From the NCBI GenBank assembly GCA_016840855.1, contig JAEORO010000069.1, positions 64,001-128,000 on the forward strand: a DNA stretch of 64,000 nt. The letters run 5' to 3'. The notes below the pieces were generated by a model. That model saw only the letters and a program-made list of their open reading frames with translations. It had not been told where the DNA came from and ran no database searches. The position numbers and the translations under genes are program-made. Below are positions 8,415-35,189 of the stretch, piece after piece. This DNA is from Candidatus Thorarchaeota archaeon. Lineage in GTDB: Archaea; Asgardarchaeota; Thorarchaeia; Thorarchaeales; Thorarchaeaceae. Numbering within the stretch: the first letter of the stretch is position 1; the number at the start of each line of letters is the position of its first letter.

Positions 8415-9257
8415 TTATCCTACTTTTTGTCCACATGAGTTGCAGAATCTTGCACCTTGCGGATAAGGTGTCCCACAGTTCATGCAGAATCCAGCTTGAG
8501 AGCCAGCAGGTACACCTGCACCTCTTACTGTCACAGAATCTGGCTGACCATCACCATCTCGATCGGTATATTGAATAGTCATGGAACCATGACCTCCGCC
8601 TTCATGTGCATGTGCACCTCCGGAGCCACCTTCGATTACGCCTCCGCAATTGGGGCAGCTTGGAACGTTTCCAGCATTTGTTCCGCAATACGGACATTTG
8701 CCTTGATTCTGTGCAGATGAAACATTAGCAATTATTGAGGGAATTACTTTCTTTTGTTTGAAATGGAATTCCATCGCACCTCCAGACTTGAGTTCTACAA
8801 TAAGCCTCTCGCCGCTTTGAGTGGCTTGACTAATGGCGATTAGAGGTAGAGCCAAACTCTCGGTGTTGCCATTTTGATCCTTGTTATAGTAACTCTCAGC
8901 AGTCCAAGAAGATATAGCGGTCCCAACAGCAGCATAAGTGATGCCCCTTGCTAGTGATCGTGTGACATGACGGCCAATGCCACCCATTTGTCTTCCTGCA
9001 CCTTCAAGCAGAGCTGCTCCAGCGACTGCGCCAGCAAGAGCGCCCCACTTTTTCAATCCGCTTTTTTTGGAAGGTTTCTTATACCAAACTAGACGGACGT
9101 CGGTAAGCTCTAGTGAGCCATCCTCTCCATCAAACTTCACATCTTTTTCGCGGACCATCTTTCTCTCGTAACTCATAGTACTTAGACCTGAGTCAGAATA
9201 AGAAACGGTTAGAAATTGCGGTCTATCAGACAATAGTATGCACCGATTGGAAATCAA
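8415..9257 (-). CDS. PH/GRAM-like domain plus double zinc-ribbon protein
   Basis: GSLELTDVRLVW beta-strand motif; CPYCG...CPNCG and FCMNCG...FCNSCG ribbons; true start probably MSYERK. Confidence 0.6.
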   Translation of the reverse strand: MISNRCILLSDRPQFLTVSYSDSGLSTMSYERKMVREKDVKFDGEDGSLELTDVRLVWYKKPSKKSGLKKWGALAGAVAGAALLEGAGRQMGGIGRHVTRSLARGITYAAVGTAISSWTAESYYNKDQNGNTESLALPLIAISQATQSGERLIVELKSGGAMEFHFKQKKVIPSIIANVSSAQNQGKCPYCGTNAGNVPSCPNCGGVIEGGSGGAHAHEGGGHGSMTIQYTDRDGDGQPDSVTVRGAGVPAGSQAGFCMNCGTPYPQGARFCNSCGQKVG

Positions 9258-9300
9258 CGAGAGTAAGTATTAACTTTGTGCTGGCAGATAAAATGAAAGG

Positions 9301-9323
9301 GAGGCTACAAGAAATGCAGCCTC
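9301..9323 (-). terminator. Hairpin terminator downstream of the MFS gene
   Basis: GAGGCT...AGCCTC inverted repeat followed by a T-rich tract on the minus strand. Confidence 0.45.
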
Positions 9324-9333
9324 TTAGCTGAAT

Positions 9334-10842
9334 CTAATCTTCAAGGAGTATTCCTTCAGAGAGCTCCTCTAATCCACCAGCCTCTGGTTCTATCGGAGGC
9401 GATATAGCATCACCATTCGCCCAGGTTTCACCATCCGGTTCAGGAGGATCATGTCTAAAGCCATGGACTATTAACACGACCCCCGTCAAGGATACGAGAC
9501 CGCATGAAGCAAGTGTCAATGGGAATCCAATGATTGTTATCAACCATCCGAATAGAGCTATCTGAGGTATCGCAAACAAGGTTGCAACGGTTGGGAAGAG
9601 AGAGTACATGGAGTTCCTAATTTTATTCGGAATTACATCCAAAAGCACACGTTGTGTAAGGATCTCAGCAAAACCTCCAAAGAAACTGGTTGAAACAAAT
9701 GTTGTGAATATGAGAGCAATTGGAACAATATTCTCTGCAGGGAGACTCAAGAGTTGTATTTGGGTGAAAGGCCAGTAAAGGGTCCAGAGGCTTGTACTTG
9801 TATCAGTTGGTGGGAATAGTAGCATGATAGCAGCAAAAACCCAGAAGAAGACAAATCCACAGGTTTGCATAAGACGAAACCGTGGAATCCACTTCTTTGG
9901 TTCAAACCTGCGGGACCATATACCTGAGCGCTCTTGGGAGAAGATACCAGGAATAAAAAGTAGAGTCCTGAAACTTGCAACACCGACATCTGTGATCAAA
10001 TATAGGTAGTACATCGGAAATAGAATGAGGTTTCCCCAAACCATAATGCTGCTTACAGCTAACATGCTCCCTACTGCGATGTATCGAATAAATGCATGTC
10101 TGAAGAGATAGCTGACGCCACCTTTGAGTATGGAGAGGTATTCACCCATCTCTGGGCGTTGGCCTTTCTGAGCTCTTTGCTCCTCTACTTCAGGAAAGTC
10201 TCGTACGAGTCTGAAGACAAGCATCGCAAACACAAACGATAGGACACCTTGTAGTTGGAAAACCCAAGCTCTTGAGAATGCAGCAGCCATAATACTCCCT
10301 GGAATCAAAGAAGCTGTAGCTACTATCTGCATTACCATGCCCATGCGTCCCCAGAAAACGCCATACTGCTTTCTATCTGAGTCACCGGGCATAGCGATCC
10401 GATAATTATTGTCGAACCATGCACCCCATGCTCCACTGGATTGAGACTGCGCAAGGCCTTGTAGAGCATAAACCAACACAAGATACACGTAAGGAGTATC
10501 AACAGTCACTATGGAAATCATGAGAAATGAGATTCCATAGGTCACATTTGCACCAGCAATGATGTACCTCTGACCAATCCAATCACCAATAGCTCCAGTT
10601 GGATAGTCCAAGATAATTTGGACAACCATCTGAACCACAACCAAAGTCCCTACCAAGCCGATACCTTGGAGATACATTCCAGGACCGCCGCCAAGTGCCT
10701 CAGCAACAAAAATCACATAGAATGTCGTAGATAGGAAGAAAGTGAGATTAGCCAATGGCCCTAAAATTCCCATAATTTGTGCCAGTTTCACGACCTTGTC
10801 TGTGGCGTCCGGCAAACCAAGAAAGGATTTCATTCTACTCAT
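9334..10842 (-). CDS. MFS transporter
   Basis: ~12 TM helices; DYPTGAIGDWIGQR (MFS motif A). Confidence 0.88.
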   Translation of the reverse strand: MSRMKSFLGLPDATDKVVKLAQIMGILGPLANLTFFLSTTFYVIFVAEALGGGPGMYLQGIGLVGTLVVVQMVVQIILDYPTGAIGDWIGQRYIIAGANVTYGISFLMISIVTVDTPYVYLVLVYALQGLAQSQSSGAWGAWFDNNYRIAMPGDSDRKQYGVFWGRMGMVMQIVATASLIPGSIMAAAFSRAWVFQLQGVLSFVFAMLVFRLVRDFPEVEEQRAQKGQRPEMGEYLSILKGGVSYLFRHAFIRYIAVGSMLAVSSIMVWGNLILFPMYYLYLITDVGVASFRTLLFIPGIFSQERSGIWSRRFEPKKWIPRFRLMQTCGFVFFWVFAAIMLLFPPTDTSTSLWTLYWPFTQIQLLSLPAENIVPIALIFTTFVSTSFFGGFAEILTQRVLLDVIPNKIRNSMYSLFPTVATLFAIPQIALFGWLITIIGFPLTLASCGLVSLTGVVLIVHGFRHDPPEPDGETWANGDAISPPIEPEAGGLEELSEGILLED

Positions 10843-10848
10843 GAATTT

Positions 10849-10956
10849 TCAGCACCCAATCGTTAGATTGTGATCTTTGTATGAACTTGAAGTTGATACC
10901 CTTCCTAGACTTGCCTGCTTAGTAGCCACATATGCAAGTTCTGGTTCACGTTTCAT
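10849..10956 (-). CDS. Micro-ORF P8, 35 aa (MKREPELAYVATKQASLGRVSTSSSYKDHNLTIGC)
   Basis: Hand-translated; AAAGGAAG upstream; T-K-Q-A resembles the TQA motif of the upstream peptides; ends 6 nt before the MFS ATG. Confidence 0.45.
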   Translation of the reverse strand: MKREPELAYVATKQASLGRVSTSSSYKDHNLTIGC

Positions 10957-10977
10957 GTCTGTCAACTTCCTTTGGAT

Positions 10978-11038
10978 TGCAACGACCCTCGGATCACACA
11001 AACGAGGGCCGCTGCAGAATCTCCACCTTAGGAGATTC
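10978..11038 (-). ncRNA. Structured RNA element: two abutting hairpins
   Basis: GAATCTCC/GGAGATTC 8-bp stem (11017-11038) directly followed by 14-bp stem TGCAGCGGCCCTCG/CGAGGGTCGTTGCA (10978-11016), with G-U pairs only on the minus strand. Confidence 0.5.
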
Positions 11039-11087
11039 GGAGATAGGAGATTTGTTCAGTGTAACTCTAATGTGAAATAGCATTGCT

Positions 11088-11210
11088 TTATTCTGACACG
11101 CTAAAACCGGCGTTACAAAGTGCTCCAAATGACTGAACACAGATCGTCTTATCCTCACTAGCTAAGCACAGCTTCGCTCTTGAGAGGATACCTGGTTGTG
11201 TCATAGTCAT
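11088..11210 (-). CDS. Micro-ORF P6, 40 aa (MTMTQPGILSRAKLCLASEDKTICVQSFGALCNAGFSVSE)
   Basis: Hand-translated; lies downstream of a TTTATA box and a palindrome. Confidence 0.35.
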   Translation of the reverse strand: MTMTQPGILSRAKLCLASEDKTICVQSFGALCNAGFSVSE

Positions 11211-11223
11211 CACATCGCCAGTT

Positions 11224-11270
11224 TTGGTTTATACAACCAACCATATTTTGTTAATGGTTTGGATATAAAC
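11224..11270 (-). promoter_or_regulatory. Putative internal promoter (TTTATA) with palindrome TTGGTT-N5-AACCAA
   Basis: Perfect inverted repeat at 11224-11240; TTTATA at ~11264-11269 on the minus strand. Confidence 0.45.
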
Positions 11271-11371
11271 ATTATTCTTAAAGCATTATTTTGTATCCTG
11301 TACTTAAAATTGCAATTATGTTGATATTTCAAACCAATTTTGTGAATATTAGACAGGACACACATGCGTTT

Positions 11372-11440
11372 CTACCTCCTGAAGAAGGCGGTTGTGATTG
11401 CTTGTGTTGTCATAATCTGTTTCTTGTTTCTGTTTGTCAT
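11372..11440 (-). CDS. Micro-ORF P4, 22 aa (MTNRNKKQIMTTQAITTAFFRR)
   Basis: GGAGGT 6 nt upstream of ATG; shares TQAIxxAF motif with P1/P3. Confidence 0.6.
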   Translation of the reverse strand: MTNRNKKQIMTTQAITTAFFRR

Positions 11441-11444
11441 TTCG

Positions 11445-11540
11445 TTACCTCCGATAGGTATATGCATGGATGATAGCCTGAGTTCGACACAGACATCTGT
11501 TTGGTAATTTGGATTTGAGATCGTATTCAGATGAAGCCAT
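11445..11540 (-). CDS. Micro-ORF P3, 31 aa (MASSEYDLKSKLPNRCLCRTQAIIHAYTYRR)
   Basis: GGAGTGTGA upstream; TQAIxxAY motif. Confidence 0.6.
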   Translation of the reverse strand: MASSEYDLKSKLPNRCLCRTQAIIHAYTYRR

Positions 11541-11556
11541 GATTTTTCACACTCCA

Positions 11557-11685
11557 TTATAGGTTGGTCACAAGATATGCTATTTCTGAGACTAACTGAC
11601 CAGTTCTATGACCACTATGTGACCAATCACCTTTCATAGATGGATCGGTAGATATCCAGCAGATTTGTTTCTCAATGTGTTCCAT
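11557..11685 (-). CDS. Micro-ORF P2, 42 aa (MEHIEKQICWISTDPSMKGDWSHSGHRTGQLVSEIAYLVTNL)
   Basis: AAGGTGA SD overlapping the P1 stop; C-terminal AYL shared with P1. Confidence 0.5.
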   Translation of the reverse strand: MEHIEKQICWISTDPSMKGDWSHSGHRTGQLVSEIAYLVTNL

Positions 11686-11690
11686 GCTCA

Positions 11691-11798
11691 TCACCTTACG
11701 ACAGTCAAGTAGGCATATGTCAGAGCCTGGGTTGTAAAAACAGCACCACTTTTGTTCTTCAGCGCAGATATGTTTCGTGAGTTAGTTGTTAGAGCCAT
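11691..11798 (-). CDS. Micro-ORF P1, 35 aa (MALTTNSRNISALKNKSGAVFTTQALTYAYLTVVR)
   Basis: First ATG after a TATATATA box; TTQALxxAY motif. Confidence 0.6.
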   Translation of the reverse strand: MALTTNSRNISALKNKSGAVFTTQALTYAYLTVVR

Positions 11799-11800
11799 GA

Positions 11801-11838
11801 TATTTCACAAGAAATACTGCTCAGTTTTGGTATATATA
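11801..11838 (-). promoter_or_regulatory. TATA box (11831-11838) and operator-like palindrome TATTTC-N4-GAAATA (11801-11816)
   Basis: Seen directly; spacing fits a short-leader archaeal promoter for the micro-ORF array. Confidence 0.55.
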
Positions 11839-12054
11839 GCGGAGCCACGTGAGAGGGTCACGAGAAGGAGTCACAATTTGTGACTATGAATTAATGAAAG
11901 GACAGAGCTAGAAACCATTGTCTTGTATGAGAAAAGAGTATCATATGTTTCAAAAAAACCATTATTCGTAGCAAAACCGACTTGATAGTCAAACATATTT
12001 AGCGGCATTGTCGGACCAAAAACACACCTAGAATCAATCCAGAGGTAGATCATA

Positions 12055-12936
12055 TTGGAGATTAAGAAAATCGCTGTTTTAGGCGCAGGTCTAATGGGAA
12101 ACGGAATTGCTCATGTATGTGCGCAAGCCGGGTATGAGGTCAAGATGCGTGACATAGACCAGAAGTTCATCGACAAGGGATTGTCCACTATCAAGAAGAA
12201 CTTGGAGAGAGGAATTGCGAAAGGAAAAATCACTCAGGACGAAGTTGACACAATTCTCACGAGAATCCATGGAGTCTTAGATCTTGAAGATGCGGTCAAG
12301 GATGCTGATCTTGTTATCGAAGCAGTTCCAGAAATTGTCAGTCTAAAGCTCGACATTTGGAAAGAGGTTGATACATTTGCACCAGAACATGCAATTCTGG
12401 CTTCTAACACATCTAGTATTAGTATCACCCAAATGGCTGCAGTCACAAAAAGACCAGAGAAGTTCATAGGAATGCATTTCTTTAACCCTGTTCCGATCAT
12501 GAATCTTGTAGAGATTATCAAGGGACAAGCCACCAACGATTCAACAGTGCAGATAATTGAGGATGTTTCAAAGAAGATTGGCAAGGAAACAGTACTTGTC
12601 AATGAAGCTCCTGGATTTGCAGTCAATAGACTACTTGTTCCAGCATTGCTTGAGGCTGTATTTGCCATCCAAGAGGGGGTAGCCACCGTTGAAGACATGG
12701 ATAAAGCGATTCATCTTGGGCTGAATTGGCCAATGGGTCCATTAACTCTGCTTGACTTTGTAGGTCTTGATACAACGTTACACATAGCAGATTACTTCTT
12801 TGAAGAGTTTAAGGACAGCAAATATAGGGCACCAACTCTATTGCGAAAAATGGTACGAGCTGGCTGGTTTGGTAGAAAATCAGGCATGGGTTTCTATGAC
12901 TACTCCGGCGAAAAACCCAAACCAAATAGATTCTAA
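12055..12936 (+). CDS. hbd: 3-hydroxybutyryl-/3-hydroxyacyl-CoA dehydrogenase
   Basis: GAGLMGNGIA, EAVPE, ASNTSS, GMHFFNP, PMGP, GRKSGxGFYDY. Confidence 0.93.
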   Translation: MEIKKIAVLGAGLMGNGIAHVCAQAGYEVKMRDIDQKFIDKGLSTIKKNLERGIAKGKITQDEVDTILTRIHGVLDLEDAVKDADLVIEAVPEIVSLKLDIWKEVDTFAPEHAILASNTSSISITQMAAVTKRPEKFIGMHFFNPVPIMNLVEIIKGQATNDSTVQIIEDVSKKIGKETVLVNEAPGFAVNRLLVPALLEAVFAIQEGVATVEDMDKAIHLGLNWPMGPLTLLDFVGLDTTLHIADYFFEEFKDSKYRAPTLLRKMVRAGWFGRKSGMGFYDYSGEKPKPNRF

Positions 12937-12944
12937 TGGAATTT

Positions 12945-12968
12945 TGACTGGTCTATGTTGACCAGTCA
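12945..12968 (+). terminator. Hairpin terminator
   Basis: TGACTGGTC-N6-GACCAGTCA followed by TTCTATTCTTTT. Confidence 0.55.
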
Positions 12969-13010
12969 TTCTATTCTTTTACATGAACAAAATACTTAGC
13001 ACCAATCATT

Positions 13011-13877
13011 TTGGAACAAGCAAGGGTGTTTCTTTTGAAATACAAAGAGAGCAAGTACATTGGATTTGATGGAATTAGGATGTTCTTAGCACTCTGGCGC
13101 CCCGATGATGATAAGCCAAGAGCACTAGTGATTGCACTACATGGATTGGGCAGTCATGCCGGAGATATGAAGAATATTGGGGAATTTCTCTCGGAGAGAG
13201 GAATTGCTGTCTTTGCACCTGATATGCGAGGGTTCGGACATTATTCTGGGACAAAAGGACATGTAATGAGTTTTGAAGAGTATGTAGAGGATATTCAAAA
13301 CTTGGTTATGCAAATAAAAGATCAATATCTGAACAAAATAACATACTTATTTGGCGCATCTTTAGGCGGTGTCAACGCAATAAGGTATGTTTTGAGATAT
13401 CCGAGGGTTGTCGATGGACTTCTTCTCCAATGTCCAGCTGTGAGCCAGAACCTGAAAATTGGGACTGGAAAACGGTTTGCGGGTAATATTCTCTCTCTAT
13501 TGAATGTGAAGAGATATGTGGATATTGGCATAGATTACGCGGATGTTTCCAGGAGTCCTGAAAATATTGAAAGACTTGAAAGAGACCCGCTTCGAGTCGA
13601 CATGGTCACTCCTCGGTTTGGCATTGAAGCACTGAAAGCATCAAAGGATGCGTTCCAAGCAGCCTCCGATATTACAATGCCAGTGATGATTCAGCAAGCG
13701 GGAGCTGATAAATTAGTTATTCCTGAAAAGACTAAGGAATTCTTTGATGCTCTAAGGTCAACCGATAAGACCTGGATGTTCTACGAAGGTCTCTATCACC
13801 AACTTCATGAAGAACCAGAGAAAGAACAAGTACTTGGAGACCTACATAGCTGGTTAGATAAACGCCTTCCAACCTAA
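13011..13877 (+). CDS. Lysophospholipase / monoglyceride lipase-like alpha/beta hydrolase
   Basis: HGLGSH, DMRGFG, nucleophile GASLGG, D..V and YHQLHEE. Confidence 0.88.
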   Translation: MEQARVFLLKYKESKYIGFDGIRMFLALWRPDDDKPRALVIALHGLGSHAGDMKNIGEFLSERGIAVFAPDMRGFGHYSGTKGHVMSFEEYVEDIQNLVMQIKDQYLNKITYLFGASLGGVNAIRYVLRYPRVVDGLLLQCPAVSQNLKIGTGKRFAGNILSLLNVKRYVDIGIDYADVSRSPENIERLERDPLRVDMVTPRFGIEALKASKDAFQAASDITMPVMIQQAGADKLVIPEKTKEFFDALRSTDKTWMFYEGLYHQLHEEPEKEQVLGDLHSWLDKRLPT

Positions 13878-16693
13878 TCTTTTTTTGACTCACGATGGTG
13901 CCCAAAAATTATATGCGGCGGGATTAAAAGCGCGGGGATACAGGTCACAAGAACGATACACCAGTCAATCAGGTTTATTGGTACGGTTTCAAAGAGCATA
14001 GCCAAAGGAGGGAAATAAATTGTTGCGAGAGTCAAAATAATTGACAAGGCAACAGCACCCATTAGCACCTTTGATTTACGCATTTCAGTCCTCCAGACTG
14101 GGTGATACTCATCCCGGCAATTCCATACAAACAGTAGTTCAAAGCACACAACACTAGCAAATACTGCAGATCGCCCATGAGTCAAGACATAAGCCCATGA
14201 AATTCCAGTTATTGGAGATATGTCAGAACTCCATATTACAGAGGGACCAGTAATGCCTGGAATCCAACCCCCATATGCCCATAATGACCAAATGAACACA
14301 CTAATTGATGATATGAATGCAACAGCACCAGCCGTAACAATGAAAGTAATCATACCACGGTCCATCATTTTAGCGCCGGGTTTCCGAGGAGGTCTATCCA
14401 TTACTCCAGATTCGGGAGGATCAACTCCAAGTGCTAGGGCAGGAAAACCATCAGTGGCGAGATTGAGCCAAAGTATCTGTATCGCGGTTATTGGTAGTGG
14501 TAATCCAAGCATCACAACTGTGAATATTAGAAATACTTCATCGAAGTTTGCGGCTAGCAAAAACCGAACGAATTTTCTAATGTTGGAATAAATCTCACGA
14601 CCTTTCTCAACTGCAGAAACAATAGTAGCAAAGTTATCATCTGTGAGGATAACATCCGACGCTTCTTTCGTTACATCAGCTCCTCGGATACCCATTGCGA
14701 TACCAACATCTGCAGTTTTAATTGCAGGCGCATCATTGACACCATCTCCAGTCATTGCAACAACTTGAGAATGTGACTTCAGAGCACCTACAATCTGTAG
14801 TTTATGTTCTGGAGCAACTCGAGCAAATACATTGCAGCGTTGAACTACTTCTTGAAACTTGCTGGGTGCCATCTCATCCAGTTCTGCACCACTGACCACC
14901 TCACCATCGACATCAATCAATCCAACGTCTCTAGCAATCGCTCGTGCAGTGAGCATATGATCGCCAGTAATCATAATTGGTCGAATTCCAGCTATCTTGC
15001 ATATTTCTATAGCATCACGAACTTCTTTTCGAGGTGGATCAATCATCCCAATCAATCCAACAAATATGAGGTTTCGTTCGACTTTTTCTGGTTCCCAATC
15101 AGCTAATTCGGATTCTAATGGACGGTATGCAAACGCTAGAACTCTCAGAGCTGCTTCTGCAAATCCAGCGTTTATGTGGATTATTGATTCTCTCTCTTCG
15201 TCAGATAACTCCCTAATATCATCATTTTCATAAATATGCGTACAGAGTGGAAGAAGAACTTCAGGAGCTCCCTTTGCATTAGCGACGAGGTTTCCATCTT
15301 CATCACGGATGATTGATGTCATTCGCTTTCTTGCAGAATCAAATGAGATTTCTGTTAATTCGGTATTACGGGACAATGTATCAGCATGAGACAGTCCTGC
15401 TTTTTCTGCAAGAACAAGAAGTGCTCCCTCAGTTGGGTCGCCAACAACACTATAATCGGCTTTTCCTGATGGATCTGGTTGTAACACAGAGTTACAACAA
15501 AGCTGCCCAATTTCAAGAAGTCTAACGACATGTGGATCTCCCATCACGCCATAATCTTCACTAGCACGCGTAAATTTTCCAGACTTATTATATCCCACCC
15601 CAGAAACTGAAATAGTCATTCCATTTACGAACATTGTTGTTGCAGTCATTTCGTTCTTTGTGATAGTCCCAGTCTTGTCTGAACAGATTATCGTCGTAGA
15701 ACCCAGCGTTTCCACTGAGGGGAGCCTTCTAACAATAGCATTCCTTGCCACCATTCGTTGTACGCCAATTGCAAGGGTTATTGTAACAACTGCAGGTAGA
15801 CCTTCAGGGATTGCAGAAACAGCAAGCGCAATAGCAGCTAATAATGCTTCCATGATTGTTTCTGCAGCATTCTTTATGACTTCAGCACCAAAGACAATAA
15901 TACAGAGAAATATGATGAGTATTCCAAGTTTCTTACCAAGGTCCTCCAAGTCAATTTGTAGTGGAGTCATGGTTTTTTCGCTACTTTGAACGAGTTCAGC
16001 TATTTTTCCAAACTGCGTTCTCATGCCTGTTGAAACAACTACAGCTTGGCCCTTCCCAGCAGTGATAGTAGTGCCTTGGAAAACCATGTTTTTCATATCG
16101 CCTACAACAGGTTTGCGAAGATGAATCGGATCACTCAGCTTTCGAACAGCAACAGATTCTCCGGTGAGTGGAGCTTCATCAGCCGATAAGCCCACAGCAT
16201 AGATAACTCGTCCATCTGCTGGAATAAGGTCACCAGCTTCAAAACCAAGAAGGTCACCGGGTACAACATCGCGAGCATCGATCTCAGTCCAGAGTCCATC
16301 TCGCATTGCTCGGGCTTTAGGTGCTGCCATCTCCTTTAGCGCTTCAAGCGCTTTTTCAGACTTGTATTCTTGCACAAAACCAAAGATGGCATTGAATACC
16401 ACTATCGCAGAAATGACAAGAGCATCAATCACACCGCCTTCATGGTCAGATGCTCCAGCGGATAAAACAGTGGTAAGAAGTGAGATGACAATTGCAATGA
16501 GGAGGATGATTACCATAGGATCCATAAATTGGTTAAGAAACATACGTAGGGGATTAATTCCCCCAGTTTCAACAAGCTCGTTAGGTCCATATTCCTTTAG
16601 CCTAACCCTTGCCTCTTTATTTGAGAGACCATTAGGTGATGAATCAAGACGTTGTAGTACATGTTCAACGTCGTTACTATACCACTCAGTCAT
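13874..16693 (-). CDS. P-type ATPase, type IIA (Ca2+-transporting-like)
   Basis: TGES, PEGL, DKTGT, KGAPE, MITGD, GDGVNDAP, NLATDG. Confidence 0.95.
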   Translation of the reverse strand: MTEWYSNDVEHVLQRLDSSPNGLSNKEARVRLKEYGPNELVETGGINPLRMFLNQFMDPMVIILLIAIVISLLTTVLSAGASDHEGGVIDALVISAIVVFNAIFGFVQEYKSEKALEALKEMAAPKARAMRDGLWTEIDARDVVPGDLLGFEAGDLIPADGRVIYAVGLSADEAPLTGESVAVRKLSDPIHLRKPVVGDMKNMVFQGTTITAGKGQAVVVSTGMRTQFGKIAELVQSSEKTMTPLQIDLEDLGKKLGILIIFLCIIVFGAEVIKNAAETIMEALLAAIALAVSAIPEGLPAVVTITLAIGVQRMVARNAIVRRLPSVETLGSTTIICSDKTGTITKNEMTATTMFVNGMTISVSGVGYNKSGKFTRASEDYGVMGDPHVVRLLEIGQLCCNSVLQPDPSGKADYSVVGDPTEGALLVLAEKAGLSHADTLSRNTELTEISFDSARKRMTSIIRDEDGNLVANAKGAPEVLLPLCTHIYENDDIRELSDEERESIIHINAGFAEAALRVLAFAYRPLESELADWEPEKVERNLIFVGLIGMIDPPRKEVRDAIEICKIAGIRPIMITGDHMLTARAIARDVGLIDVDGEVVSGAELDEMAPSKFQEVVQRCNVFARVAPEHKLQIVGALKSHSQVVAMTGDGVNDAPAIKTADVGIAMGIRGADVTKEASDVILTDDNFATIVSAVEKGREIYSNIRKFVRFLLAANFDEVFLIFTVVMLGLPLPITAIQILWLNLATDGFPALALGVDPPESGVMDRPPRKPGAKMMDRGMITFIVTAGAVAFISSISVFIWSLWAYGGWIPGITGPSVIWSSDISPITGISWAYVLTHGRSAVFASVVCFELLFVWNCRDEYHPVWRTEMRKSKVLMGAVALSIILTLATIYFPPLAMLFETVPINLIDWCIVLVTCIPALLIPPHIIFGHHRESKKD

Positions 16694-22562: not shown

Positions 22563-24452
22563 CTATTCTAAATCTTCAAAGTCAACATCCACAACATCTT
22601 CATCATCTTCTTTTGATGCTTGTCCAGATGTTGAATCAGTGGCTCCAGCACTAGCCATCGTGCTTGGATCAAATCCCATGGTGCCGGGTCCTGCAGGTCC
22701 TGGTCCTGCACTTGCATATACCTTTTCAGAAATCTTGTAGATAATCTGCTGGAGTTCATTGGTGCCGGATTTCATTTTCTCAAGATTGTCAGACTCTATT
22801 GCTTTTTGCAACTCAGCTGCTTTAGTCTCAAATTCCTTCTTAAGATCCTTAGGTACTTTGTCACCTAAGTCCTTGAGAAGCTTCTGACCCTGATAGATCA
22901 TTTGGTCAGCATCATTCCTAGTTTGAACAGCATCCTGACGCTTTGCATCGTCCTCAGCATATTTCTCTGCATCCTTAACCATTCGTTCCACATCTTGGTC
23001 CGAGAGATTGGTACTTGCAGTGATTGTAATAGATTGCTCATTTCCTGTTGCTGTGTCTTTAGCTTTGACGTTAGCTATTCCATTTGCATCGATATCAAAT
23101 GTAACTTCAATCTGAGGTGTAGCTCGTGGAGCCGGAGGTATACCTACGAGCTGGAATCGTCCTAAGGTCATATTATCAGCAGCCATTTTTCGCTCACCCT
23201 GAACAACATGAATATCAACAGCTGTTTGACCATCAGCTGCAGTTGTGAACATCTTGCTCTTTCTAGTTGGAATAGTTGTGTTCCGATCAATGAGAGGTGT
23301 AGCAATGCCTCCTAAAGTTTCGATGCTGAGTGTGAGTGGGGTCACATCCAGTAGCAGAATATCTTTGACAGATCCAGACAAAACTCCAGCTTGTGCGGCA
23401 GCCCCAAGAGCCACACACTCATCTGGATTGATGCTTTTGTCACCTTCTTTTCCAAACAGATCGCGAATGACATTCTGAATCATTGGCATACGTGTAGCTC
23501 CACCTACCAATAGAATCTTGTTGATTTGTTCAGGTTCGAGTTTTGCATCTCCGAGAGCTTGCCGTATTGGACCAATAGTGGCGTCAACCAAATCATCTGT
23601 CATTTTTTCAAATTGCGAACGGGTTATATCTAAATTGAGGTGTTTGGCACCACTTGCATCTGCTGTGATATATGGCAGATTAATGTTTGTCTTCATCACA
23701 GTTGAGAGTTCAATCTTTGCTTGTTCAGCAGCATCACGAACTCTTTGCATTGCTGAGAGATCTTTGGATAAATCAACACCAGTTTGATTCGTGAACTCAT
23801 CAACCATCCAATTGATTATTCGATTGTCCCAATCATCTCCTCCAAGTTGTGTATTTCCACTTGTTGAAAGAACTTCATATACAACCTCGCCTTCAACTGC
23901 GCCGATGTCCAAGATTGAAACATCAAATGTACCTCCTCCTAGGTCATAGACTAGGACTTTTACCTCCTTGCTTTTATCAAGACCATAGGCCAACGCGGAG
24001 GCTGTAGGTTCATTCACAATCCGTTCAACTTCAAATCCAGCTATTTTTCCAGCGTCTTTTGTGGCTTGTCTTTGACTATCATTGAAATAAGCAGGTACGG
24101 TGATCACAGCTTTTTGTATTGACTCACCAAGAAATGCTTCAGCATCGTTCTTCATCTTTTTCAAGATCATAGCTGAGATTTCCTGAGGAGTATATTCTTT
24201 ATCACCAATCTTAACCGTGTAATCCTGCCCCATCTTCCGTTTTATTGATCGAACAGTGCGGTCAGGCATTGATACTGCCTGTCGCTTTGCCAGCTCTCCA
24301 ACGATGATTTCACCATTTGGAGTAATTCCAACGACTGATGGAGTCAAACGCTTCCCTTCAGCATTTGGGATTATAGTTGGTTTTCCACCTTCCATATAGG
24401 CAATACCACTATTCGTTGTCCCCAAATCTATTCCAACAATTTTACCAGCCAT
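22563..24452 (-). CDS. dnaK: Chaperone DnaK (Hsp70)
   Basis: [32 protein letters not shown]. Confidence 0.98.
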
Positions 24453-33200: not shown

Positions 33201-35097
33201 AATGGTTTGCCATGGTCGCACCAACGCTAATCACAGAGAATGTGCCGCCAGGTGTGCCCATTGAACCATAGTCACTACCTTCATTGCCCGCAGAGAACAA
33301 AATCAGCACTCCAGGATAGGACGGTGCCAATACACCAGGTACTGATGCAAGGTCCCACACCATTGAGTAAATTCTCAACTGAAGGTACATGCCACCAGGA
33401 CCCCAACCCCAAGAGTTGGAAACCATGTGAGCCCTGTGACTTGGTCCATCACCAATGTATTCCCAGTAGCCAGAGGTTTCATTCAGAGTGAAGCCCATGG
33501 CCCAAACTTGAGCAGCTAAATCACCACCTGCGGATATTCCTTTAGAGGCAATGATCTTAGCACCAGGAGCTACACCGGGTAGATAATAGAGTGTTCCATT
33601 ACCGTAGATGTCATGACCATAGGTACCAGCTGATGCAATTGCAGAAGCTGTCCAGTGGCCGTGATCGGTTGATGTTGTGAACAATGAGTTCCATGCCATA
33701 CCATCATCAGCGATACCGAAGAACAGGCCAGGATCCTCAGTCAAGTAACCAAGACTGTCTAATGCCCAGCTTAGTGAGCCAAGACCACAATCCATTACGC
33801 CATCATCGTCAACATCAGCTGTAAGAACGTTATTTCCTTTATTGAAGACGTAACCTTCAGCAATATCATCAACGAAGCTCCAATCCATCATTCCTGTGAT
33901 TAGATCTCTGTCAGCAGTGACATTGAGGTCTATCTCATAGGGTAGATATGGTGTACCAGCGGGATGTTGTGATCGAATTGCCCAGTTCCACATTCGAGTC
34001 CATGCAAGTGTGCCATTCCAGTCAATAATTAGATCATCATCATAAATCATTGAAGGAGCGAACACTTTTGCATAACCATCAATCTTCTGTTGGTATGCCC
34101 AACCGAATGTGTAATTATCAGCTGTAGGAGCAGGAATCTCCCAGTCCTTCCACATCTCATGGTAGACAAACTCAGAAACATTGTTTCCACCCCATGCCCA
34201 CTCATATAGACCGATGAAACCAACAACATCACCTTCTGGGTAACCATCTCCATATGGAGGTCGAACGCCCATGAGGTTTCTATGACTACCTTCCATGTTA
34301 CAAACTGGATCCCAGCCTGAAACATCAAGATAGTATTTACCGCCCATCTCGTAAGTCAGAAGATATCCAGCTTCGAGCCAAGCAGTTGTGTTTTCTACAT
34401 AGGTACTGTTTGCGATTACCATCTCAGTCAAACCCATACTTGATGGGTCATAGGACATTGGGTATGTACCATTGTTGTACTCAGCATTCCTTAGGTCTTC
34501 TTGGCTGAAGTCGACACCAGAGTCGACGACACCTACGATGACGCCATCTCCAGAATAGCCAGTAGCATATGGTCCAGTAGCGCCGATTAATTCGTTGATA
34601 TAGAACATATCAGGATTAACCAGGTCTGCCAAATCCGTTGCCGGTTCAGGCGCTCGGATGTAGTCAGCTTGGATGTATTGAATTCCATCAAAAGATGTCA
34701 GCTTTTTCAAAGCAGAAATCGAGCTTACATCAACTGATGCCACCCTCAAGAGTTTTAGATCAATCTGCCATCGTACCTTTGCAACATCTGCAAGTACGGA
34801 AGCATCAAATGAAGGTGTGAGATACAGCAAAAGCTTTGTGTCACCACTTGTTGTTGTGACTACACTATCATCCAAAACACCTGTTTCGATATAGGATGTT
34901 ATTATTGGATCAACTTTCTCCACCGGGAAGTTTTCCTGTAGACGTTGTGCCCACTTTTGGATAAACTCCTTTTGATAATCGGTTGGAGCTGCTACCTGGG
35001 AGTCAACATTGGCGAGAGGTGCGAATGGCACAAGTGCCATGCTTATAACGAACACACCACAAAGAAGTAGAACCGCAGTTTTTCTCAGGTTATTCAT
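30265..35097 (-). CDS. Large secreted, C-terminally anchored subtilisin-like (S8) serine protease
   Basis: Signal peptide; VVDSG (Asp), DHGH (His), SAGNEG, SGTSLSCP (Ser); Thr/Pro linker, TM, RKK tail. Confidence 0.9.
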   Translation of the reverse strand: MNNLRKTAVLLLCGVFVISMALVPFAPLANVDSQVAAPTDYQKEFIQKWAQRLQENFPVEKVDPIITSYIETGVLDDSVVTTTSGDTKLLLYLTPSFDASVLADVAKVRWQIDLKLLRVASVDVSSISALKKLTSFDGIQYIQADYIRAPEPATDLADLVNPDMFYINELIGATGPYATGYSGDGVIVGVVDSGVDFSQEDLRNAEYNNGTYPMSYDPSSMGLTEMVIANSTYVENTTAWLEAGYLLTYEMGGKYYLDVSGWDPVCNMEGSHRNLMGVRPPYGDGYPEGDVVGFIGLYEWAWGGNNVSEFVYHEMWKDWEIPAPTADNYTFGWAYQQKIDGYAKVFAPSMIYDDDLIIDWNGTLAWTRMWNWAIRSQHPAGTPYLPYEIDLNVTADRDLITGMMDWSFVDDIAEGYVFNKGNNVLTADVDDDGVMDCGLGSLSWALDSLGYLTEDPGLFFGIADDGMAWNSLFTTSTDHGHWTASAIASAGTYGHDIYGNGTLYYLPGVAPGAKIIASKGISAGGDLAAQVWAMGFTLNETSGYWEYIGDGPSHRAHMVSNSWGWGPGGMYLQLRIYSMVWDLASVPGVLAPSYPGVLILFSAGNEGSDYGSMGTPGGTFSVISVGATMANHYYVNSYYPYQPNYQQAFFSATGPAYTGYVKPDVMAPGFFGYNPEPSENDWLDAGPTFLSWSGTSLSCPLAAGVSALIMEAWADNHGAVMPSPQLTKDILLSTADDMGYDPAVQGHGFINAEAACRAIQEGYTSEFIFESESFASYAEQIAESWAYWVPYWAPFDDIYYEDWFDPVGLESSDIFFGTVTRSEVKTITLNIDDYAGNGANTASFSSAPQPWYYTEGSKLEFSLTGYTYNDTLTNVIRSGYFNLFDNMTGPEQTAFLAARYATIQVAFDASDMGITGRLFDWSDTAGGPELNFWNGTDGDYLVYVQRCDEPNLLTFRVADPVALSNLFSYNPTLILFGASGVTVDVTIQIWAQTPDTDVVITDDGTTGVNATLTVDADAEYGFHQGSITFVAGGFTHEIPYSYTVEMPLDGAAGAEMVLVDGAGPEVTPYDSGTAITHFTPGTDSTQEGGGFTIFHIDIPYNDAINASVLVMRAEWMNQGTVVDMQLRDELGATITGTNDGGRPFDPQPTGDLTNTIIWDPGYLINGTYWFEYNIHVFDGADVPEPIKITFQVYGPTALTQAENDFKWTAKDMTTPTSISEDDVLIGDHIVVTTNWTIPDVAGLPEYSVITGTQLSLLSGLYAHPTGTYADPQGADTWPVPLTSTDIYIWQTVGPISAGDTVVVTLDAQGSADPSFDVYEWNDLNSNGLVELNEVPDNTGAALLSVDNGGGGAAETGTYISPADMYIAIRVFCWAWAYNHQSYMLEVDTRVSIDLPSATDLVTYDTYNILVNKTMDIYLYCWTETDVVWLIDFGKVTFRNFFGPKLTINDAIDLGDDRYNFTFSATDRNEDDSIFYMVWLSSDGGDTYQLLGQNLTETFFVWDSDGWLEGDYYYRVRVYSVDLGIIVDGEPLGTAESPPDSYGPMALYVDSISGPFSAGNVPVTTPPPTTSTPPTTPTTGEVIFDPLLIGLIGGIGVGVVVLLILFLIRKK

Positions 35098-35189
35098 TTT
35101 CTATTTTTCTCCTCACGTTTTAAGTGGAGAACAAGTACATCATGAAGGACAAGCCATCTCCGCATCGATGGTGTCTCCTCTAGACGCAT
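35094..35189 (-). CDS. Putative 31-aa uORF (MRLEETPSMRRWLVLHDVLVLHLKREEKNRK) coupled to the S8 gene
   Basis: GGAGGT SD just upstream; its TGA overlaps the S8 ATG (ATGA). Confidence 0.4.
   Translation of the reverse strand: MRLEETPSMRRWLVLHDVLVLHLKREEKNRK

Follow-up and report, generated by a model that had tools for sequence, protein, structure and literature searches.

Chained micro-ORFs in Candidatus Thorarchaeota: a lineage-restricted family of candidate micro-protein genes behind a common operator-like promoter

Leaders are a familiar feature of the bacterial resistance genes erm, cat, cmlA and tet(L), while TnaC, SpeFL and the CPuORFs of fungi and plants represent nascent-peptide arrest or conserved-peptide uORFs. 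Another kind of small-peptide locus encodes the multi-peptide leaderless bacteriocins aureocin A70, garvicin KS and enterocin L50, which are hydrophobic or amphipathic, membrane active and exported by ABC transporters. To our knowledge, archaeal small proteins have barely been catalogued, and we know of essentially nothing on those of the Asgard archaea, the closest prokaryotic relatives of eukaryotes. In bacteria, leader-peptide attenuation is reported to govern mef(E)/mel (PMC4335068), and leaderless short ORFs are reported to serve as attenuators where mycobacterial operons begin (10.1101/834739); nascent-peptide arrest and conserved-peptide uORFs are the subject of further reports (PMC11890864, PMC5587730). 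In Sinorhizobium meliloti, the leader peptide peTrpL is reported to act in trans on a multidrug efflux operon as well (PMC7298713); since it acts in both ways, cis and trans roles appear to be compatible. Termination-reinitiation is reported to couple translation in archaea as well as bacteria (PMC6728339). For Haloferax volcanii and E. coli, such coupling is reported to require that the genes overlap or lie very close together, and pairs this close show an enrichment for subunits of heteromeric complexes (PMC10666635).

The locus described here lies on the minus strand of a 64,000-nucleotide stretch of Candidatus Thorarchaeota DNA (assembly GCA_016840855.1, contig JAEORO010000069.1, positions 64,001 to 128,000), hereafter the window. 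A first-pass annotation had proposed a polycistronic cassette of four micro-ORFs at this place, three of them (P1, P3 and P4) sharing a motif near the C terminus. Our analysis upholds the proposal for these three ORFs, which are under purifying selection, are chained by Shine-Dalgarno (SD) motifs and follow a TATA promoter, and does not support it for the second ORF (P2), for a general link to MFS genes or for RiPP-type precursors. Like the mef(E)/mel leaders, the cassette ORFs are short, lie 5' of genes for efflux-type MFS proteins, one of which resembles Mef(A)/EntS, and of a gene with an acetyltransferase domain, and carry their conserved residues near the end of the ORF. Unlike those leaders, they form series of two to four homologous ORFs joined by SD-in-stop junctions, not alternative hairpins; their peptides, of 20 to 35 aa, have a conserved N terminus as well, the same cassettes also occur stand-alone, and the host is an archaeon.

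Members, distribution and coding signature of the family

All four minus-strand ORFs listed by the annotation are present at its coordinates, and P1, P3 and P4 are homologous micro-ORFs. P1 (11691..11798) is a class I micro-ORF of 35 aa, MALTTNSRN...TTQALTYAYLTVVR (profile E = 5e-10). P3 (11445..11540), a further micro-ORF of the family, encodes 31 aa ending in ...RTQAIIHAYTYRR (E = 7.9e-8), and its start context, TGTGAAAAATCATGGCT, is a copy of that of P1. P4 (11372..11440), a class II micro-ORF of 22 aa ending in ...TTQAITTAFFRR (E = 2.5e-6), starts 4 nt past the P3 stop, at an internal ATG within a 61-aa frame. Orthologues of P3 read MALTKNDNRSV..QTRAITHAYTYRR, and those of P4 have the C-terminal end ..ISTRAIAEVYFRR. 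The C-terminal motif shared by the three peptides is not a chance resemblance. Over six frames of the 3,361,515-bp genome, TQA[ILVM]..A[YFW] has 3 matches, all within the P1/P3/P4 locus and each beginning 11-13 residues ahead of a stop. A profile of the family retrieves 10 copies at 5 loci with E <= 2.5e-6 from the 109,357 stop-to-stop frames of the same genome, the best match outside these copies having E = 3.2.

The profile finds the family in 72 of 76 genomes of the same family-level lineage, across 16 genera of Candidatus Thorarchaeota, and in 0 of 224 genomes elsewhere in the phylum. Matches at the DNA level were obtained in 24/24 genomes of the same genus; the 15 further genera are reached by the peptide profile and not by DNA search. 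Class I peptides begin with MALTTN and are always encoded by the first cistron, while class II peptides (20-35 aa) begin with MALAK. The C-terminal motif, S-T-x-A-[ILV]-x-x-A-Y-x(1-4)-R, runs up to the stop codon, and a basic linker of variable length separates the two conserved ends. Each genome holds several paralogous copies that vary in this middle part. The peptides (20-35 aa across the family) are hydrophilic (mean GRAVY -0.56 to -0.75), with a net charge of +3 to +9 and about 0.06 Cys per sequence, and on GRAVY and charge no transmembrane helix of the kind found in AcrZ or type I toxins was recognized.

Pfam returned 0 families at E <= 1 for P1, P3, P4, P2, the downstream frames ORF5 and ORF6 and one class II peptide, and PDB profile searches with A1 and A4 gave 0 matches at E <= 1. 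The ESM Atlas held no usable match for P1 and one for a natural fused form at 0.77, below the lead threshold. The exact peptide sequences of the source genome are missing from a collection of 15 billion proteins, and no such peptides were found in titles and abstracts of the literature on Thorarchaeota and other Asgard archaea. By these searches, the P1/P3/P4 family is previously undescribed and restricted to one family-level lineage of Candidatus Thorarchaeota. An origin from mobile elements or viruses was rejected, as an exact-pattern scan of viral contigs gave 0 matches and orthologous positions are kept across species. AlphaFold2 modeled a natural fused form (8-row alignment) as two helices, residues 20-39 and 64-72, with low confidence (pLDDT 61, pTM 0.24).

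The argument that differing synonymous codons betray selection on the peptide is borne out in 212 unique copies. The invariant Thr is encoded by ACC (87), ACT (80), ACA (39) and ACG (6), and the invariant Ala by GCT (107), GCA (64), GCC (22) and GCG (19). Diversity at these codons is 0 at positions 1 and 2, partly by construction because the sequences were chosen by a protein profile, and about 0.65 at position 3, where the freedom is not built in. The motif Ser is encoded by TCN as well as AGY. Over whole ORFs, diversity by codon position is 0.33/0.27/0.45 in class I (73 sequences) and 0.44/0.38/0.62 in class II (63 sequences), with the order 3 > 1 > 2 in both, although these counts overstate independence, 24 species of a single genus having contributed related loci. 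The MALAK of class II is kept as a peptide with free synonymous sites (Ala GCA 30, GCT 21, GCG 10). In P1 and other class I ORFs, codons 2-6 are kept at synonymous sites too, which points to a nucleotide-level constraint at the mRNA 5' end, and in P1 the first seven codons are kept as nucleotides.

That constraint, together with the conservation of the promoter block as nucleotides and the nature of the P2 region (see below), is what might be expected if the ORFs were incidental to a conserved DNA or RNA element, be it a promoter, an operator, a structured RNA or a repeat. Against such a view, third positions are free at invariant residues throughout the 212 copies, members differ in length by whole codons only within an ATG-to-stop frame, and the profile crosses into genera that the DNA search does not reach. 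Moreover, the only Rfam match at E <= 1 in positions 9000-14000 of the window was a chance miRNA match outside the cassette region. Because of the codon statistics, by which selection acts on the peptide of the P1/P3/P4 family, we consider it scarcely credible that these ORFs are not genes.

P2 (11557..11685, or 11557..11694 from a GTG start; minus strand), which had been counted among the cassette peptides, is an open frame that does not belong to the family. Its codon-position diversity (0.34/0.35/0.38) lacks periodicity, and its frame relative to ORF1 differs by lineage (18, 5 and 2 loci for the respective frames). In 24/25 loci, which are related, at least 75% of the spacer is spanned by an ORF, versus 40% of shuffled spacers. 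Within P2, at 11565..11625, lies a conserved element in which TGGTCAC repeats are followed by GTGACCA (minus strand: TGGTCAC-N4-GTGGTCAt-N6-TGGTCAG ... CTCAGAAA.AGCATATC.TGTGACCA). Its blocks are invariant in 26 loci. RNAalifold proposes a pairing of TGGTCAC with GTGACCA, and as both arms are invariant, covariation speaks neither for nor against it. The element also occurs in other genera, and in 10 loci it stands between the promoter and a GNAT-domain gene, 9 of them lacking a class I ORF. It may be an operator array or an RNA element. Judged by periodicity, frame and recurrence of the blocks in leaders free of class I, P2 is not a peptide gene of the family, and its frame, although kept open, overlies a separate conserved cis element.

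Promoter, chained starts and the stretch before the transporter gene

The TATATATA box that had been noted ahead of P1 is indeed found at 11831..11838 on the minus strand, 32 nt 5' of the P1 ATG, and is nearly invariant in 75 loci. In the same 75 aligned loci, conservation begins abruptly at a palindrome, GTCACAAATTGTGAC (11870..11884, minus strand), which marks the 5' edge of the promoter block and resembles an operator; a further GTGACC half-site lies at about 11854-11861. A promoter of ~90 nt, with a GTCACA-N3-TGTGAC palindrome and a TATA box, is common to all cassettes. The layout recurs across 16 genera (outside the genus of the window, 16 of 20 loci have a TATA-like box 36-40 nt ahead of the ATG), and it also precedes two unrelated genes of the source genome. 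The palindrome would be the site bound by a regulatory protein. One candidate for that protein is the TrmB-like regulator encoded at C86:32598-33428 of the source genome, which carries a GTCAC palindrome of its own. With the usual archaeal spacing between TATA box and start, the distance to the P1 ATG would leave a 5' UTR of roughly 10 nt.

The stops of P1, P3 and P4 overlap SD motifs (AAGGTGA, CGGAGGTAA and AGGAGGTAG), as the first-pass annotation had claimed. Across 220 unique contexts, the distance from a stop to the following start is -4 to +7 nt with few exceptions, and most cassette junctions fall at +4 to +7 nt. The annotation had also cautioned that the terminal Arg residues may reflect the SD sequence, and rightly so: the final codon is AGG in 172/219 copies, versus 13% of Arg codons genome-wide, and the penultimate one is AGG or CGG in 124/219, which together yield GGAGG. 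For the two Arg residues, which make up part of the C-terminal conservation, the SD and not the peptide is thus the explanation. A search with a conserved 16S anchor did not find the 16S rRNA 3' end in the assembly, and the anti-SD is accordingly assumed. The spacing of SD-in-stop junctions predicts that the cassette ORFs are translationally coupled, the arrangement having the sequence features of a termination-reinitiation operon. Like the reported termination-reinitiation pairs, cassette ORFs have stop-to-start distances of -4 to +7 nt and an SD within the last codons of the preceding gene. The cassette differs from ordinary genes of Haloferax volcanii and E. coli, in which -4 and -1 overlaps predominate, in that its distances are mostly +4 to +7 and its partners are all micro-ORFs, with coupling a prediction.

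The cassette points toward an MFS gene on the same strand, as had been described. This gene, MFS-A (9334..10842, minus strand), encodes a transporter of 502 aa (Pfam MFS_1, E = 1.8e-19; no NCBIfam family). All 20 relatives at >= 72% identity for which upstream sequence exists have the cassette upstream; over the whole family, it precedes 25/71 genes with at least 700 nt of upstream sequence. P4 and MFS-A are ~530 nt apart, and within this gap lie a TATA-like box, another coding ORF of 41 aa and a covarying hairpin. Next to P4, the AT-rich spacer termed ORF5 (11210..11365, minus strand) is non-coding, with a codon-position diversity of 0.39/0.38/0.34 that shows no periodicity and a net length that, in 11/19 orthologues, departs from the length in the window by a number of nucleotides not divisible by 3. 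The spacer contains a conserved block, AATGTTTATATCCAAACCA, and a conserved TTTATAT box (11263-11269) that may serve as a promoter. It is followed by ORF6 (11088..11213, minus strand; 41 aa, ..DKTICVQSFGALCNAG..), a second and unrelated kind of small protein, whose diversity is 0.32/0.29/0.51 overall and 0.29/0.23/0.55 in the C-terminal half (20 loci). Downstream of ORF6 lies an RNA-like element (10979..11086, minus strand; no Rfam match) composed of an invariant CTCCTATCTCC (11039-11049), an optional hairpin (11018-11037) and a 13-bp hairpin (10979-11015). The loop core of the latter, GTGTGAT, is invariant, every position of its stem is paired in 19-20 of 20 sequences, and both-sided changes occur (CG>GC in 4/20, CG>TA in 4/20).

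Downstream partners and the role of the peptides

The annotation had placed the peptides upstream of an MFS gene whose product might export them. This link is not general. Only one of the five loci of the genome adjoins an MFS gene, most cassettes lack an adjoining transporter, and efflux-type MFS genes are coupled in two locus types. Downstream partners vary between two MFS families, a peptide ending in EVLALEAT, a GNAT-domain protein or a terminator alone. The MFS-B transporter is DHA3-like, with EntS, Mef(A) and Tap among its relatives, and another payload is a GNAT-domain protein of 464 aa; orthologues of neither were found in the source genome. The commonest architecture closes with another small peptide, rather than with an enzyme or a transporter: this EAT peptide is acidic, 35-40 aa long and ends in EVLALEAT. 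In relatives, eight cassettes made of class I and one or two class II ORFs close with Arg-Arg-TGA followed by a hairpin and a T-run, and no downstream ORF is coupled to them. A cassette ORF lies directly upstream of the payload at the junctions with MFS-B (start at +5 nt from the upstream stop in 17/18) and with the EAT peptide.

At class II/EAT junctions, the stop is TAG in 23/29 and the two ORFs are in frame in 22/29. Natural fusions of ~70 aa, with Gln in place of the stop, make up 6 of the 14 cluster representatives read; the contigs that carry them are short, metagenomic and of unknown taxon. In one fused lineage, identity has fallen to 53% and the frame is still open. Recoding of the TAG was rejected, since neither a PylS match nor a tRNA with a CUA anticodon was found in the genome. 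ARAGORN detected 24 tRNAs, none with CUA, and one tRNA-Sec, in a genome that is 92% complete and whose intron-bearing tRNAs may be missed. On this evidence, TAG is taken to be a stop, and the ~70-aa forms are taken to be genuine TAG-to-CAG fusions. A complex prediction for a class II and an EAT peptide returned no answer (score 0.02, mark 0.32) and counts neither way.

Separately, of 122 cassette loci searched, 15 have a RimJ-like GNAT gene (189 aa) ~0.9 kb downstream of the cassette, which is of one subtype. A functional link was not retained and the association is treated as synteny; at C256, the one locus examined, a gene on the opposite strand intervenes.

Could the peptides be exported as signals or antimicrobials, RiPP-like or unmodified, with the MFS protein as exporter or immunity pump and class I, class II and EAT peptides as the cargo? 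Tandem homologous genes for cationic peptides of ~30 aa with a net charge of +3 to +9, several paralogues per genome with a variable middle, and the efflux-type MFS genes coupled in two locus types would fit. However, a scan that took in ORFs of 110 aa or more lying no farther than about 5 kb from the five loci of the genome covered 21 neighboring proteins, none of a maturase, peptidase or ABC exporter family. They comprise an F420 ligase, a zinc-ribbon protein, MFS, a 3-hydroxyacyl-CoA dehydrogenase, an S33 hydrolase, an ABC ATPase, a TrmB regulator, a methyltransferase, profilin, GNATs, desulfoferrodoxin, PALP-PadR, AhpC, DUF6935, PolX, URO-D and four family-less proteins. The ABC ATPase is encoded on the strand opposite to the C86 cassette, at a distance of ~2.5 kb. 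RiPP-type precursors, raised by the annotation, also find no support in the peptides, which have almost no Cys and no leader/core layout: conservation falls at the two ends, with a variable stretch between them. These hydrophilic peptides showed neither a signal nor a double-glycine leader, most cassettes have no transporter alongside, and DHA3-type MFS pumps are known to us for small-molecule substrates, not for peptides of 30 aa. The cassette shares with leaderless bacteriocins its tandem homologous genes for cationic ~30-aa peptides, the absence of a leader and, in places, an adjoining transporter, and differs from them in the hydrophilicity of the peptides and in that most cassettes have no transporter. 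Export is, in our judgment, quite improbable.

A serious rival is a role in cis, as leader or sensor peptides: a ribosome held at the stop would cover the next SD and start, or would control reinitiation in another way, and so gate translation of the payload. The last 12-14 residues contain the conserved motif, which extends to the stop, peptides of 20-35 aa are short enough to fit mostly inside the exit tunnel, and the SD-in-stop spacing is tight, most strictly before MFS-B. The payloads, DHA3-like MFS-B and the 464-aa GNAT-domain protein, are of resistance type, and an efflux or acetyltransferase setting is where bacterial cis-acting leader peptides occur; mef(E)/mel (PMC4335068) and the mycobacterial leaderless short ORFs (10.1101/834739) provide bacterial precedents. 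Both the ending of the motif at the stop and the position of cassettes before efflux-type MFS and acetyltransferase genes count against the peptides being products. Yet eight cassettes have no payload to gate, and 9 of the 10 GNAT-gene loci have kept the promoter and TGGTCAC element and lost the class I ORF. The distance from motif start to stop is 12 residues in 78 copies, 13 in 84, 14 in 48 and 15 in 2 (n = 212), constant inside subtypes and not family-wide. Class II ORFs vary from 20 to 35 aa while their MALAK N terminus is kept as a peptide, Gln replaces the stop in the fusions, and in the window a gap separates P4 from the MFS gene. We regard a cis-acting role as doubtful. A more specific form of it, which we find unlikely, would have the ribosome on class I and II ORFs detect a small molecule or translation inhibitor and pause at the stops, gating an efflux/acetyltransferase regulon, with free-standing copies as decoys or as peptides acting in trans in the manner of peTrpL.

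Our preferred reading, to which we give an even chance, is that P1, P3 and P4 are translated micro-protein genes, co-translated within an operator-controlled regulon, and that the peptides themselves are the products. Transcription would start from the common archaeal promoter (palindrome, GTGAC half-sites and TATA box) with the short 5' UTR predicted above, one RNA would span P1 to P4, and the first cistron would begin near the transcript 5' end. The 20 sequencing runs that a search listed were all DNA and bear neither way on expression of the locus. Each later cistron would be started from the GGAGG within the last two Arg codons of the previous one, 4-7 nt upstream, and the peptides would therefore be made by translational coupling, at a minimum as a pair of class I and class II. 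They would be end products acting in trans and not leader ORFs only; the payload-less cassettes, the architecture ending in EAT and the open class II/EAT fusions speak for peptides as end products. The cassette may be one unit of a regulon whose other outputs would be two efflux-type MFS transporters, the acidic EAT peptide and the GNAT-domain protein.

Relation to described peptide systems

With ~30 residues, ~10 copies per genome and its presence in 72/76 genomes of its lineage, the family constitutes a statistically strong small-protein case. It also offers a rare wealth of regulatory anatomy, with a promoter and putative operator, a second leader element, SD-in-stop chaining and defined outputs. 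These features provide experimental handles on an uncultivated lineage, where peptide-dependent translational control in archaea and the stimulus of an efflux regulon become testable.

As in peTrpL, very small peptides head an operon and would be tied to efflux genes. PeTrpL is a bacterial peptide of 14 aa from a classical trp attenuator, and the cassette peptides have no sequence similarity to it. With arrest peptides and CPuORFs the cassette peptides share a length class of 20-35 aa, a conservation that is concentrated at the C terminus up to the stop and a position upstream of regulated genes; the cassette departs from them in a motif-to-stop distance that varies by two residues, in payload-less cassettes and in stop-to-Gln fusions. 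At the level of titles and abstracts, we found no arrest peptide from archaea. If the sensor reading were true, the cassette would, on that literature, give archaea their first described system of peptide-dependent translational arrest, and it would represent an Asgard counterpart of the bacterial resistance leaders and of the eukaryotic conserved-peptide uORFs.

The micro-ORF region and its surroundings

The micro-ORF region lies in a gap of 1,212 nt between two divergent genes, a 3-hydroxyacyl-CoA dehydrogenase gene on the plus strand (12055-12936) and the MFS transporter gene MFS-A on the minus strand (9334-10842; Pfam MFS_1, E = 1.8e-19). Behind a minus-strand TATA box (TATATATA, 11831-11838), the four minus-strand micro-ORFs were found where the first-pass annotation had placed them: P1 at 11691-11798, P2 at 11557-11685 (11557-11694 if read from a GTG start), P3 at 11445-11540, and P4 at 11372-11440. 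The stops of P1, P3, and P4 fall, as it had claimed, within Shine-Dalgarno (SD) sequences (AAGGTGA, CGGAGGTAA, and AGGAGGTAG). The array does point toward the transporter, but P4 is not directly coupled to it, since about 0.5 kb of minus-strand features intervenes, namely the non-coding, AT-rich stretch "ORF5" (11210-11365), a 41-aa ORF (ORF6, 11088-11213), and a conserved RNA-like element (10979-11086). A conserved TTTATAT box inside "ORF5" (11263-11269, minus strand) may act as an independent promoter driving ORF6 and MFS-A. ORF6 (..DKTICVQSFGALCNAG..) shows coding periodicity (diversity of 0.32/0.29/0.51 at codon positions 1/2/3 in 20 loci of the window's type), is unrelated to the TQA family described below, and has neither a Pfam family nor an exact match in a 15-billion-protein collection. 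The RNA-like element, about 140 nt upstream of the MFS-A start, combines an invariant, anti-SD-like CTCCTATCTCC with an optional hairpin and a 13-bp hairpin; the latter pairs in 19-20 of 20 sequences, with both-sided (compensatory) substitutions and an invariant loop core, GTGTGAT. It has no Rfam match and is a candidate cis-regulator of MFS-A. Among MFS-A-family genes whose available upstream sequence extends to 700 nt or more, 25 of 71 are preceded by co-directional family ORFs, and a cassette precedes all 20 close orthologues (at least 72% identity) with upstream sequence.

A lineage-specific family of coding micro-ORFs

Sequence comparison establishes a new lineage-specific micro-protein family, predicted to be expressed as SD-chained cassettes under a common promoter that carries an operator. 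Translating the 3.36-Mb assembly in six frames gives three hits to TQA[ILVM]..A[YFW], all of them in the micro-ORF region and each beginning 11-13 residues before a stop. Used as a DNA query, the 601-nt region matched 24 of 24 same-genus genomes (2-8 matches each) and none of 16 more distant ones. About 90 matching places were fetched, oriented on the conserved promoter, and read as ORF chains. A profile, A1, was built from 50 peptides and used for genome, phylum, and cluster-representative searches. Its hits in this genome number 10, spread over five loci (three in the window, two each on contigs C10, C256, and C86, and one on C107), and all have E <= 2.5e-6; with 109,357 frames searched, the first hit below these has E = 3.2. 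Across the phylum, where it gave about 500 matches altogether, it recognizes 72 of 76 genomes of the same family (16 genera) and none of 224 from other families. Among 1.84 billion cluster representatives, 53 proteins match, nearly all of 29-42 aa; one match, a repetitive protein of 1,927 aa, is regarded as spurious. The 15-billion-protein collection holds no exact match to the peptides of this genome, and the peptides have no relative in Pfam, PDB sequences, or Atlas.

Class I ORFs (starting MALTTN, always first cistron) and class II ORFs (starting MALAK) share a C-terminal S-T-x-A-[ILV]-x-x-A-Y motif. Judged by codon usage, P1, P3, and P4 are coding. In 212 unique motif-anchored copies, which were chosen by protein profile and come in many cases from related species, the Thr and Ala of the motif are invariant, with no change at codon positions 1 and 2 and a diversity of about 0.65 at position 3 (Thr: ACC 87, ACT 80, ACA 39, ACG 6; Ala: GCT 107, GCA 64, GCC 22, GCG 19). 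This bears out the earlier argument from synonymous codons; the preceding Ser also uses both TCN and AGY. Over whole ORFs, diversity follows the order 3 > 1 > 2 (0.33/0.27/0.45 in class I and 0.44/0.38/0.62 in class II), and members differ in length by whole codons. A purely non-coding explanation is contradicted by these codon data and is scarcely credible.

Two nucleotide-level constraints overlie the peptide-level selection. In 172 of 219 copies the stop is preceded by AGG, compared with an AGG share of 13% among the genome's Arg codons, and in 124 of 219 the codon before that is AGG or CGG. To a large extent the two terminal Arg residues thus reflect a GGAGG serving the following cistron, as the first-pass annotation had cautioned. 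Cassette-final ORFs with nothing to initiate still keep the Arg residues, as AGG CGC. The second constraint freezes synonymous sites in class I codons 2-6 (GCT in 106 of 107, CTA in 93, AAC in 93); the class II MALAK terminus is conserved as peptide, with synonymous sites free.

The peptides have 20-35 aa, a net charge of +3 to +9, a GRAVY of -0.56 to -0.75, and almost no Cys; the structure model predicted for a natural fused form (see below) is weak. That the peptides are exported as signals or antimicrobials is improbable, as this fits such hydrophilic molecules poorly and no maturases were found among the neighboring proteins scanned at the five loci of this genome. The same observations speak against the proposed RiPP-like precursors exported by the MFS protein and agree with the remark that no modifying enzyme adjoins. 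Upstream of the lone class II ORF on C107, another small ORF (about 24233-24370, minus strand) ends ..LDSLYYDYARIK, and its counterparts at loci L117 and L122 end ..ESLYYDYCAWR; these may represent an additional, more remotely related class.

The P2 element and the shared promoter

P2 does not belong among the peptide genes, contrary to its initial assignment: it lacks codon periodicity (0.34/0.35/0.38), and the reading frame of its region differs between lineages. The region consists of invariant nucleotide blocks, TGGTCAC-N4-GTGGTCAC-AGAA-N2-TGGTCAG ... CTCAGAAA.AGCATATC.TGTGACCA. In other genera, the TGGTCAC...GTGACCA element also precedes relatives of MFS-A. Behind the shared promoter, it further occupies the 5' leader of a gene whose 464-aa product carries an N-terminal GNAT domain (10 loci: L011, L077-L083, L086, L087); in nine of these loci the class I ORF has been lost. 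At L078, a class I N terminus is fused in frame to a P2-type frame. An ORF is kept open across the P2 spacer in 24 of 25 loci, versus 40% of shuffled spacers; it may thus be of importance that ribosomes pass through the element, whatever peptide sequence results. We favor a putative DNA operator, because the GTCAC/GTGAC half-sites are common to the promoter palindrome. An RNA role is a less favored possibility, as the arms are invariant and offer no covariation for or against pairing.

In 75 loci, promoter conservation begins abruptly at ATAGTCACA-N3-TGTGAC and continues through TGTGACCC, GTGGCTTCGCTATATATAC, and CTTGTGAAATATCATGGCTCTAACAACTAAC. Among 20 other-genus loci, 16 have a TATA-like box 36-40 nt before the ATG and nine the exact GTCAC...GTGAC palindrome, the rest mostly reading GTAAC for GTCAC (by eye). 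The same operator-plus-TATA layout, TAGTCACA-N3-TGTGACCC plus TTTATATAC, precedes two unrelated genes of this genome, for a membrane protein of about 370 aa and a protein of about 430 aa (promoters at C196:~7580 and C240:~24648, both minus strand), so that the cassettes look like members of a wider regulon. On C86, a TrmB-family regulator gene (C86:32537-33428, L203:4537-5428; Pfam TrmB E = 7e-19) lies 1.3 kb from the micro-ORF cassette and is directly preceded by a TGTCAC-N7-GTGACA palindrome; its product is a candidate for the predicted operator-binding factor.

Cassette architectures and possible roles of the peptides

Five architectures were read. The window's type (A) comprises class I, the TGGTCAC element, a class I-like ORF, class II, about 0.5 kb, and MFS-A. 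In type B, class I (optionally with the element and a further small ORF) and class II precede MFS-B, a DHA3-like transporter related to EntS, Mef(A), and Tap that starts 5 nt after the stop. Type C, the most frequent among the loci read, carries class I, class II, and a 34-40-aa peptide ending ..EVLALEAT (EAT peptide); type D has the element alone before the GNAT-domain gene; and type E, checked in 8 loci, ends after class I and one or two class II ORFs in a hairpin and T-run, with no coupled downstream ORF. Stop-to-start distances at 220 unique junctions fall, with few exceptions, between -4 and +7 nt. Class II-to-EAT junctions use TAG in 23 of 29 cases and are in frame in 22 of 29; 6 of 14 cluster representatives read are fusions of about 70 aa with the stop replaced by Gln, one fused lineage having diverged to 53% identity. 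Pyrrolysine machinery was not found in this genome; ARAGORN in default mode reports only 24 tRNAs in the assembly, and a tRNA-Sec is present (anticodon TCA, 35074-35164).

A RimJ/RimL-like GNAT of 189 aa (Pfam Acetyltransf_3) is syntenic with one cassette subtype, about 0.9 kb downstream (L021, L026, L036, L039, L040, L042, L043, L047, L050, L051, L064, L094, L098, L107, L109, L113, and C256:6250-6819 of this genome); at C256, the sole locus checked for this, an opposite-strand gene intervenes. N-terminal acetylation of the peptides by this enzyme is a thought suggested by their conserved Met-Ala N termini.

We favor, with about even confidence, the reading that the peptides are end products, because cassettes without a payload (downstream gene) exist, because the payload met most often is another small peptide, which in some cases is fused to class II, and because both peptide ends are under amino acid-level selection while length varies. 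The short spacers fit the termination-reinitiation coupling known from archaea, where such closely spaced pairs are reported to be enriched for complex subunits (PMC10666635). Cis-acting leader or arrest peptides are the competing, less likely reading. In its favor, the motif ends at the stop, the stop overlaps the next SD, and the payloads are efflux pumps and an acetyltransferase, a setting like that of bacterial leader peptides (PMC4335068; 10.1101/834739).
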